64,000 nt of DNA, taken from assembly GCF_017348835.2 (NCBI RefSeq), contig NZ_CP071375.1; one strand, written 5' to 3'. Made by a program: the position numbers. Below are positions 22,901-25,900 of the stretch, one piece after another; position 1 is the first letter of the stretch, and every line of letters begins with the position of its first letter. The DNA comes from Escherichia coli. Lineage in GTDB: Bacteria > Pseudomonadota > Gammaproteobacteria > Enterobacterales > Enterobacteriaceae.

Positions 22901-25900
22901 GGCATCGGGTTACCCTGGGCAATCATGTTGTCCAGTGACGAAAAGTACGTGTTCTGTCTGCCGTTATCCGTTGCGCGGTAATCCGGTGTTTTTGCCTTCG
23001 GGGCCAGCATCTGGGCCACACCACCCAGTATCATGCTGGCTCCAAGTGAAAACAGCATCGTGGTGGCAGAAAAACCACCGGCTGCCAGGGCTGAACCCCA
23101 TAACGCCATCGTTGCGCCGGCAGTGAAGAAAGAGCCCACGATGGCTGCCGCCCCCAGCACAATCTGCAGTCCACCCTTTCCGGCCCCGGCCAGTCGCGGC
23201 ACAATGTGGATGACCGTTCCCTCACCCAGCTGTTCGTGAAGACGGGCGTACACCGCCTCCGGTGCCGTGTCATCACCGGCAATACGTATCTGGTACCAGC
23301 CTTCGTTCATCTGACGGCGGAATCCGGGCACCTGTAACGACAGCGCCCGGATGGCTTCCGCTGCCGTGTTCACATTCAGGCTGATGCGGCGACCAAATCG
23401 TTGTAAATCCCCGTGAAGGCAGATGCGGACCAGTGGCGGTGACGCCAGACAGAATGCGTTCGTCGTTGCCATTTTTCGGAATACCTCTCCCGTTTACTCA
23501 GTTGTTCAGGCAGATGGTGAAGCAGTTCACCGTTGCCGCAGTAAATGGCAGCATGGTTGGGTACCGATGCGCCAAAGCAGCACAGCAGGATATCGCCTGC
23601 CTGTGCCGAGGACAGGGGCACCCGGTAAAAACCAGTGGCCTCCATATTGTCCAGGTAAAGGTTCTGACCGTTGCGCCACCAGTCATCCTCACGCTCAAAA
23701 TCCGGCATATCAATTCCCGCCAGATGGTATGCATCCCGGAACAGCGTGTAACAGTCCGTCACCCCGTGCTCAAAGCGCCGTCCTGTCAGATGTGGCACAC
23801 AGCGGAATTTATGAATGTCCCCCCGGCAGACCAGCCACCAGGACAGTGCACTTTTTATCTGCAGCCGCCGGTCGGCCTCGCTCAGCCAGGGCAGACCACC
23901 GGGATGACTGTGGACCAGTGCCACAATCTCCCCCTGCATCTCTGCCCGCAGCCAGTCTTCCGGTGCAATACGAAAATACGCCTCCGGCTCTGCAGAGATA
24001 TTCACACACGGCAGATACCGCTCCCCCTCCGGCGTTCTCACCACGAAGCCGCACGACTCCGCAGGCACACACCGCCGGGTGTGTGCCAGAATCACTGATT
24101 CTGTCTGTGTCATTGGATTTACTGCGAAAGTTTGTTAATGGAAAGGAAACCGCCAAAATTAGCCACCATGCCGCGCATCTCACACCCGCGCATGCACTTG
24201 CTGCATCTGTCCTTACGGATATCGGTGGTGGGGTTGTCGAACTCATCCGCCACCGCAGGACCGTTATACCCGCATTCATCTCCCCGGTAATCCCACATAC
24301 AGGTGTTCGCCAGCATGATGCGACCAGGAAACAGCGCCCCGTCCGTCTCCGTCGGTGTTGCCAGCACAAACGAGGCTGTCATGGCCGTCAGCTCTGACAT
24401 CTGCTCCACCACCCAGCGGTCGCTCAGCTCCTGCTCCGGGTCCGCTTCCGGATTGCCCGCCACAAAATTCACCGCATCCAGAAAACGGGCATACACCCGG
24501 CGGCGGACCACCGTGGCCCCCACCAGGCTCTGCAGGTCCTCCGCCATCCCGGTGACCAGACCAAACAGATTGGACACCGTCAGCGACGGGCGGGCACTGC
24601 TGCCCTTCCCGTTCATCTCAAAGCCACTGCCGTCAATCGGGTATGCCTGATATTGCCGCCCCTGCCAGGTAACCGCCTCCCCTTTTTCATTCAGCTCATT
24701 GCAGAAAAAATACCGCTCACCACCCTGTACCGTCAGGTCGATTTCCCAGAGTACCACCCGCGGTGACTGCTCTGATTTAACCGACTCGTTCAGACTTTCT
24801 TCGTGAATATCCTGCATCAGTTCACCACCTGCTTAAACTCCGCGCTGAATTCAACCCGCAGCATGCGAACCCGTGATGACCAGGCGGCACAGGTCACCTT
24901 TATCTGCCGCTAGGCATAAGGCGGTGTCCACAGAAACGCCTTCCAGCCACCGTGCTCTGCCAGGAATGCCTCCAGATGTCGGGCCTCCTCCCGGGTCACG
25001 GAAAGCGTCACACGGTATGTTTTCAGGTCAGCATTCAGCCCCGCCGCCATACGCTGCGAATACCCGTCACCAAAACGCACTTCACGCACCGATGGCTGCG
25101 AGTTCACCTCCATATCCGGCTTCACTTTCCAGCGAAATGTTTTCATCGCCTGCCTCCGGAAAAGACGCCGCCATCACGCATCTGCGCCTGAATCTCATCC
25201 TGCGCCCCCTTGCGGGCCATGTCATACACCGCCTTCATCAGCTGCGGCCCCGCCTGTCCGTTGGTGCCGTCGTTCTGAATCACCACGTGATTGTTCTGAT
25301 TAAAACTAATGCCTTCCGCCCGCCGCATCTGCGCCGGACTTCCGGCACCGCCCACATAACCACCTTCCGCATACCCGCGCATCAGACGATACAGGTTGCC
25401 GACGCCAATCCGGCTGGTTGCCTCCTTCGTGAAGACAAACTCCCCGCGGTGGACAATACCGGCAGGTTCGTATTTGCCACCGGTTCCCGTAAATCCTCCG
25501 GTCGCGAAATGGAAGTTCGCCGCCGCAGCCTGAATGGCCGTCCCCGTGGAGGCAGACGCCCCACCACCGAAAGCACCACCCATGGCGCTGCCAATACTCC
25601 CGACAATCCCCACCATGGCCTGCTTCAGAAAAATCTCTGTCAGCATGGAGAGCACAGAACGGGTGAAACCACGCCAGCTCTGTTCGCTGCCGGTCAGCAT
25701 CGCTGCCATATTCTGTGCAATACCGTCAAAGGTCTGCGTGGCCACGCTTTTAACCTGCGAAAAACTGTCCGTCGCACTTTCTGCCCACTCGCCCCAGCCG
25801 GACTTCAGACCGGCCATCCAGCTTCCACGAAGCTGCTCCTCCGCAGACCAGGTGTTCTTCAGTGCAGATGTGGCCTTCGCCAGCGCATCCGGATTATCAC

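Follow-up and report, generated by a model that had tools for sequence, protein, structure and literature searches.

An amber codon at a Dcm site very probably inactivates tail gene M in a lambdoid prophage of Escherichia coli

Gene M and its neighbors in the tail operon

The window analyzed here, a 64,000-nucleotide stretch of E. coli DNA, contains a prophage with a lambda-type tail operon, in which gene M (24817-25146, minus strand) is placed between the tape-measure gene H and L; the gene order, Z-U-V-G-T-H-M-L-K-I-(sodC)-J-lom-tail fiber, is that of annotated relatives. The start of M shares ATGA with the tape-measure gene stop (25143-25146), and its stop shares TGATG with the start of L (24815-24819), as the initial annotation had described for the L junction. 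The same annotation had reported an amber codon in M followed by an in-frame continuation, and the minus-strand translation reproduces this exactly: MKTFRWKVKPDMEV (beginning MKTF) ...FLWTPPYA is followed by TAG at 24910-24912 (CTA on the plus strand), then by RQIKVTCAAWSSRVRMLRVEFSAEFKQVVN and by TGA. A functional M is expected to have an uninterrupted frame of about 109 codons; here the frame is broken by TAG at codon 79 of 109. The features discussed below are as follows.

24913-25146, minus strand: M codons 1-78, still translated; positions 1-76 of the 108 in profile PF05939, with 83% identity to lambda gpM (PDB 8iyk)
24910-24912, minus strand: amber codon TAG in place of Trp79 (TGG), read from the translation; relatives carry C at 24911
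24910-24914, plus strand: mutated Dcm site CTAGG, ancestral CCAGG, with the inner C at 24911 changed, from comparison with PE164
24817-24909, minus strand: untranslated M remnant, codons 80-109 and the normal TGA, holding the most conserved residues of the family
25143-27722, minus strand: tape-measure gene H, intact (859 aa), with ATGA shared between its stop and the M start
24119-24817, minus strand: tail gene L, intact (232 aa), with TGATG shared between its ATG and the M stop
23376-24113, minus strand: K, a C40 peptidase; a private TGT-to-TGA change places the stop two codons early (23376-23378), just upstream of the I start

Does the stop in M silence its neighbor as well? L is preceded by AGGTGG, a Shine-Dalgarno-like sequence 7 nt upstream of its ATG, so its translation would not need to rely on coupling to M. 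The other head, packaging, and tail ORFs have the same lengths as in the intact O103:H2 12009 prophage, with the exception of K, whose 245-aa variant was not on record in an exact-protein look-up. The J protein of the window has an exact match only in the genome of PE164, because the single difference in J is synonymous: this private G-to-A change, at window position 19604, converts CCGGG into CCAGG and makes a new Dcm site. Two of the private changes (M and K), of which there are about seven, are nonsense, an excess over the roughly 4.5% that random substitution would give, albeit in small numbers. At 37677, in the large terminase gene, the window has one base more than PE164; the window ORF is intact, as in O103:H2 12009, and the PE164 gene (L002, 35705-37632) is annotated as frameshifted, one of several such frameshifts in that genome, which look like assembly indel errors.

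What the truncation removes

Repaired at codon 79, M matches Pfam PF05939 (Phage_min_tail) over all 108 profile positions with a score of 132.9 bits, as compared to 102.8 bits for the 78-aa product (cut-off 39), and aligns with the lambda gpM chain 8iyk_M at 83% identity, residues 1-109 on residues 1-109 (E = 6.5e-58). The likeness to lambda gpM (PDB 8iyk, 8iyl, and 8k35) extends from this identity across 109 residues to the H-M-L-K-I-J gene order and the start and stop overlaps with the neighboring genes; the difference is that the window M is interrupted at codon 79, leaving 76 of the 108 profile positions translatable. As the distal tail protein of lambda, gpM folds as a beta-sandwich, with an E-loop and a helix at its flank, and six copies form a ring that anchors the J/L/I/H tip onto the tail tube (PMC10721106).

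The part of M that lies beyond the stop is short and dense in conserved positions. In an alignment of 24 homologues, the 31 residues lost hold 8 of the 17 invariant columns (V84, W89, L96, A102, F104, Q106, V107, and V108), and the intact homologues have either Trp or Tyr at position 79 itself. An AlphaFold model of M has a mean pLDDT of 57.9 and is poor over residues 1-40, and only its C-terminal secondary structure is used here: two long beta-strands, 82-93 and 97-106, both fall past the stop, with a local pLDDT of about 70-78. It is very unlikely that a 78-residue fragment without both strands could form the ring and, as far as the sequence allows one to judge, this copy of M is very probably null. 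Genetics of lambda supplies a parallel: amber (sus) mutants in M make no active tails in non-suppressing hosts, and the block is tight. Mutants such as Mam87 resemble this prophage in having an amber codon in M, in the tail block that is expected to follow, and in the expected complementation in trans; they differ in that they came from laboratory mutagenesis, whereas the amber in the window is natural and sits in a resident prophage.

A C-to-T change at a Dcm site

Against the O26:H11 11368 allele (WP_000847304.1), only 1 of 330 nucleotides of M differs in the alignment: G236A, which turns TGG (Trp79) into TAG. On the plus strand this is C24911T, converting CCAGG into CTAGG (24910-24914); since PE164, O103:H2 12009, and O26:H11 11368 all carry C where the window has T, C is the ancestral base at 24911 and T the derived one. 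The substitution, C to T, affects the inner cytosine of a CCWGG motif, the signature of deamination at a Dcm site: 5-methylcytosine in CCWGG is a C-to-T hotspot because its deamination creates a T:G mismatch that very-short-patch repair by Vsr counters only partly (PMC2715241). In PE164, dcm and vsr are intact and adjoin yedJ; the matching position lies about 0.2 kb past the left edge of the window.

The classical case of 5-methylcytosine deamination is that of the lacI amber hotspots at CCAGG. There, as here, the inner C of CCAGG becomes T, giving CTAGG and an amber codon; the difference is that in the window the mechanism is deduced from sequence context and apparent recurrence only. The target is narrow: Dcm-methylated positions make up only 0.45% of the bases in the 40.9 kb common to the window and PE164, and 2 of the 44 nonsense substitutions possible in M fall on such positions. 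The intact gene has three Dcm sites, and the six deamination products that these can yield comprise four synonymous changes and two ambers, at Trp79 and Trp89.

We consider it probable that the stop is a real loss-of-function point mutation, arising most likely by spontaneous deamination of 5-methylcytosine. The presumed methylated inner C of CCAGG (24911, plus strand) would have deaminated to T, changing Trp79 from TGG to TAG, probably in the strain's own lineage and after its split from PE164-like relatives. Translation would then end after 78 of 109 residues, the prophage would supply no functional gpM and, acting alone, would be expected to yield tailless heads; a sibling lambdoid prophage with an identical M could complement the defect in trans or repair it by recombination.

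Where else the amber allele occurs

The intact 109-aa M protein is common, its exact sequence being carried by at least 1000 contigs. The closest genome, that of the pig isolate PE164, matches 26.8 kb of the window prophage at 99.97% identity, about nine differences in total, and has TGG in M; TGG is also found in the orthologous prophage, 99.0% identical, that O103:H2 12009 carries at this yodB/serU locus. When 5,426 complete E. coli genomes were searched with a 61-nt probe centered on the amber, 420 of them gave matches, at 619 places in all; no match was exact, and every one lacked the amber. Among the public genomes searched, no other joins the amber to a window-type background. That PE164 is free of TAG copies of M throughout its genome favors a new mutation in the lineage of the window.

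Yet the allele is not confined to the window. An exact look-up of the 78-aa product retrieved a complete TAG-containing M in four draft assemblies (GCA_003015285.1, GCA_000194215.2, GCA_005393035.1, and GCA_001607265.1), and the same 33-nt context in IMG/VR has TAG in 3 contigs versus TGG in 38. Counted together, at least seven public assemblies or contigs besides the window share this TAG. All belong to one other prophage type (L003 type), whose flanks diverge by about 5% from those of the window, whose tape-measure gene is 851 codons long, and whose M carries two synonymous marker bases, at positions 303 and 306. Its closest relative among complete genomes, at 99.3% identity, has no amber. 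The window and the L003-type prophages are identical over 461 bp around the amber (-394 to +66). The amber thus exists on two backbones, each with TGG relatives, and, read from these sequences, recurrent mutation of a hotspot is the simplest account of the pattern. The L003-type prophages also have a common +1 frameshift in L after ...QSLVG (about 10237-11040 on their contigs), so that two lesions lie in adjacent tail-tip genes.

Many public draft contigs break off precisely at nucleotide 236 of M, where the amber arises, and the base there is A in some and G in others. Such breaks suggest assembly forks in genomes that hold both alleles, and the amber may be commoner than complete TAG codons show. 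The exact 78-aa product is found in 199 contigs, as against 1-52 for other partial lengths; this count was rejected as a measure of prevalence, since in about half of the cases read a contig simply terminates there.

Rival readings of the stop

Could the stop be an error rather than a mutation? The T at 24911 would then be an artefact of base calling or consensus at a methylated Dcm motif, the genome truly having CCAGG and thus TGG. Such errors are well documented: with default nanopore basecaller models, about 70% of consensus errors fell in CCAGG or CCTGG, and polishing cleared just 70-80% or so of those (PMC6591954). That the amber change is private to the window sequence, among the genomes searched with a window-type background, is also what an error would produce. 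However, the assembly looks clean: of 91 Dcm motifs in the 40.9 kb that the window and PE164 have in common, just 1 differs, no head or tail ORF across about 25 kb of structural genes is frameshifted, and the terminase gene is intact (PE164 has several frameshifts). Moreover, the occurrence of the same TAG in at least seven other assemblies or contigs means that the allele exists in nature; an error at this base is unlikely. If the mutation is real, it could still have been acquired rather than made in place, by gene conversion from a resident L003-type prophage that carries TAG. The 461 bp of identity around the amber, despite flanks that diverge by about 5%, would fit such a transfer, for which a short tract could suffice, and lambdoid prophages that share a genome recombine readily (PMC2669165). 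But the amber allele is absent from PE164 and from every other complete genome searched, the window lacks the two marker bases of the L003 type (M positions 303 and 306), and recurrence is unsurprising at an expected hotspot. We regard conversion as quite unlikely, and spontaneous deamination remains the preferred origin.

A stop codon need not be absolute, and enough full-length gpM might be made by an amber suppressor, by natural readthrough of UAG, or by recoding of TAG. The demand would be modest, as 6 copies of gpM per tail suffice; some homologues naturally have Tyr instead of Trp at position 79, and UAG followed by C is a comparatively weak context for termination. On the other side, the lambda M ambers are tight in non-suppressing hosts, and the five tRNA genes of the window include no suppressor: these are Arg-tct, Arg-tcg, a tRNA with a cat anticodon (Met according to ARAGORN, tRNA-Ile in the annotation of relatives), serU (cga), and asnT, so that tct, tcg, cat, cga, and gtt are the only anticodons and no tRNA with a CUA anticodon was found in the 64 kb. 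Mutation of the serU anticodon gives the supD amber suppressor; in the window, this anticodon is the wild-type CGA. Recoding of TAG was rejected separately, since the endolysin gene of this operon ends normally with TAG and stop-codon usage is typical of E. coli. Restoration of gpM by any of these routes is scarcely plausible.

It could also be imagined that CCAGG/CTAGG at Trp79 acts as a semi-reversible tail switch in strains with several lambdoid prophages. Dcm-dependent deamination would turn tail production by one prophage off, and either a Vsr-stimulated change of CTAGG to CCAGG, of a kind mentioned in PMC2715241, or recombination with a sibling copy would turn it on again. The presence of the same amber on two backbones, together with draft contigs that break at that very base, would fit such a switch; even so, we hold it to be very improbable. 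The reading that we favor is the plainer one of a spontaneous hotspot mutation: M of this prophage is an ordinary nonsense pseudogene of a known gene, with a probable cause that is well understood, and an instance of prophage decay.

Other lesions in the prophage

The initial annotation had cited three further lesions, an ochre codon in nleC, an amber codon in a TerB-like gene, and an IS629 element in the late operon, as support for a tail defect; each is weaker support than that annotation implied. The nleC remnant (13540-13866, minus strand) consists of 96 codons, an ochre codon replacing Gln, and 13 more NleC residues, beyond which it joins unrelated sequence. PE164 has an identical remnant, and O103:H2 12009 an equivalent annotated one of 288 nt; in sequence terms, the lesion is best described as an ochre codon with a deletion junction 13 codons on, old, common to the relatives, and with no role in the tail. 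The TerB-family amber (46316-46318, minus strand) is likewise a widespread allele of an annotated pseudogene that is not tail-related: 505 complete-genome records match the region at 99% or more, with the annotation "internal stop", many complete genomes match it at 100%, and the codon is TAG in 89 and GAG in 20 of 109 IMG/VR contigs. An origin of this second amber by a Dcm event, considered for its CCTAG context, was rejected, the alternative allele being GAG and not TGG. The third lesion, an IS3-family (IS629-like) element of 1310 bp at 42277-43586, is intergenic and breaks no ORF: it lies between a SASA-family esterase gene and the holin gene, antisense to late transcription. PE164 has 32 places that match the element, none at the equivalent of 42277-43586. 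The nleC, TerB, and IS lesions add little to the case for a tail defect.

Elsewhere in the prophage, an insertion of about 1.05 kb (14408-15462) encodes an IS5-family DDE transposase (322-aa ORF, 14437-15405) and splits nleB2 into 13900-14493 and 15431-15946; nleB2 is intact in PE164 and O103:H2 12009. The integrase gene (60851-61876) adjoins serU (61929-62018; tRNA-Ser, anticodon cga).

Can the prophage make tails or move?

If M is null, is the prophage confined to its host? The initial annotation had taken the lesions to point to a prophage that can no longer make tails, unless the amber were a sequencing error. One part of this reading stands, as the amber should abolish this copy of M; the rest holds only for this prophage alone, and the lesions cited in its support are weak. 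In PE164, a second prophage carries tccP2, and its M, L, K, and I proteins are identical to those of the serU prophage, down to the accession numbers. Should the strain from which the window derives keep this sibling, the M defect would be recessive, and complementation in trans, as an analogy with other lambdoid prophages suggests, is plausible. Prophages of O157 Sakai whose morphogenesis is defective nevertheless undergo packaging, and some of them transfer; the authors ascribe this to complementation by siblings that have near-identical virion genes (Asadulghani et al., 2009; PMC2669165). The prophage in the window resembles this EHEC pool of defective prophages in being an effector-carrying lambdoid prophage (nleB2, nleC, nleH, and nleF) with point and IS lesions, and in coming from a lineage in which sibling prophages share identical tail genes; it differs in its background, which is closest to the pig isolate PE164 and to O103:H2.

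What the lesion means

The M lesion is a clean natural case of a Dcm-site C-to-T change that gives an amber codon, a fate to which CC-preceded Trp codons (TGG) are all exposed. In annotation, M of this prophage deserves to be marked as a pseudogene with an internal stop, and tail building by the prophage on its own should not be presumed. Conversely, one point lesion is not proof of immobility where siblings encode identical tail proteins, and the question of immobility matters because the element carries genes for type III effectors (nleB2, nleC, nleH, and nleF).
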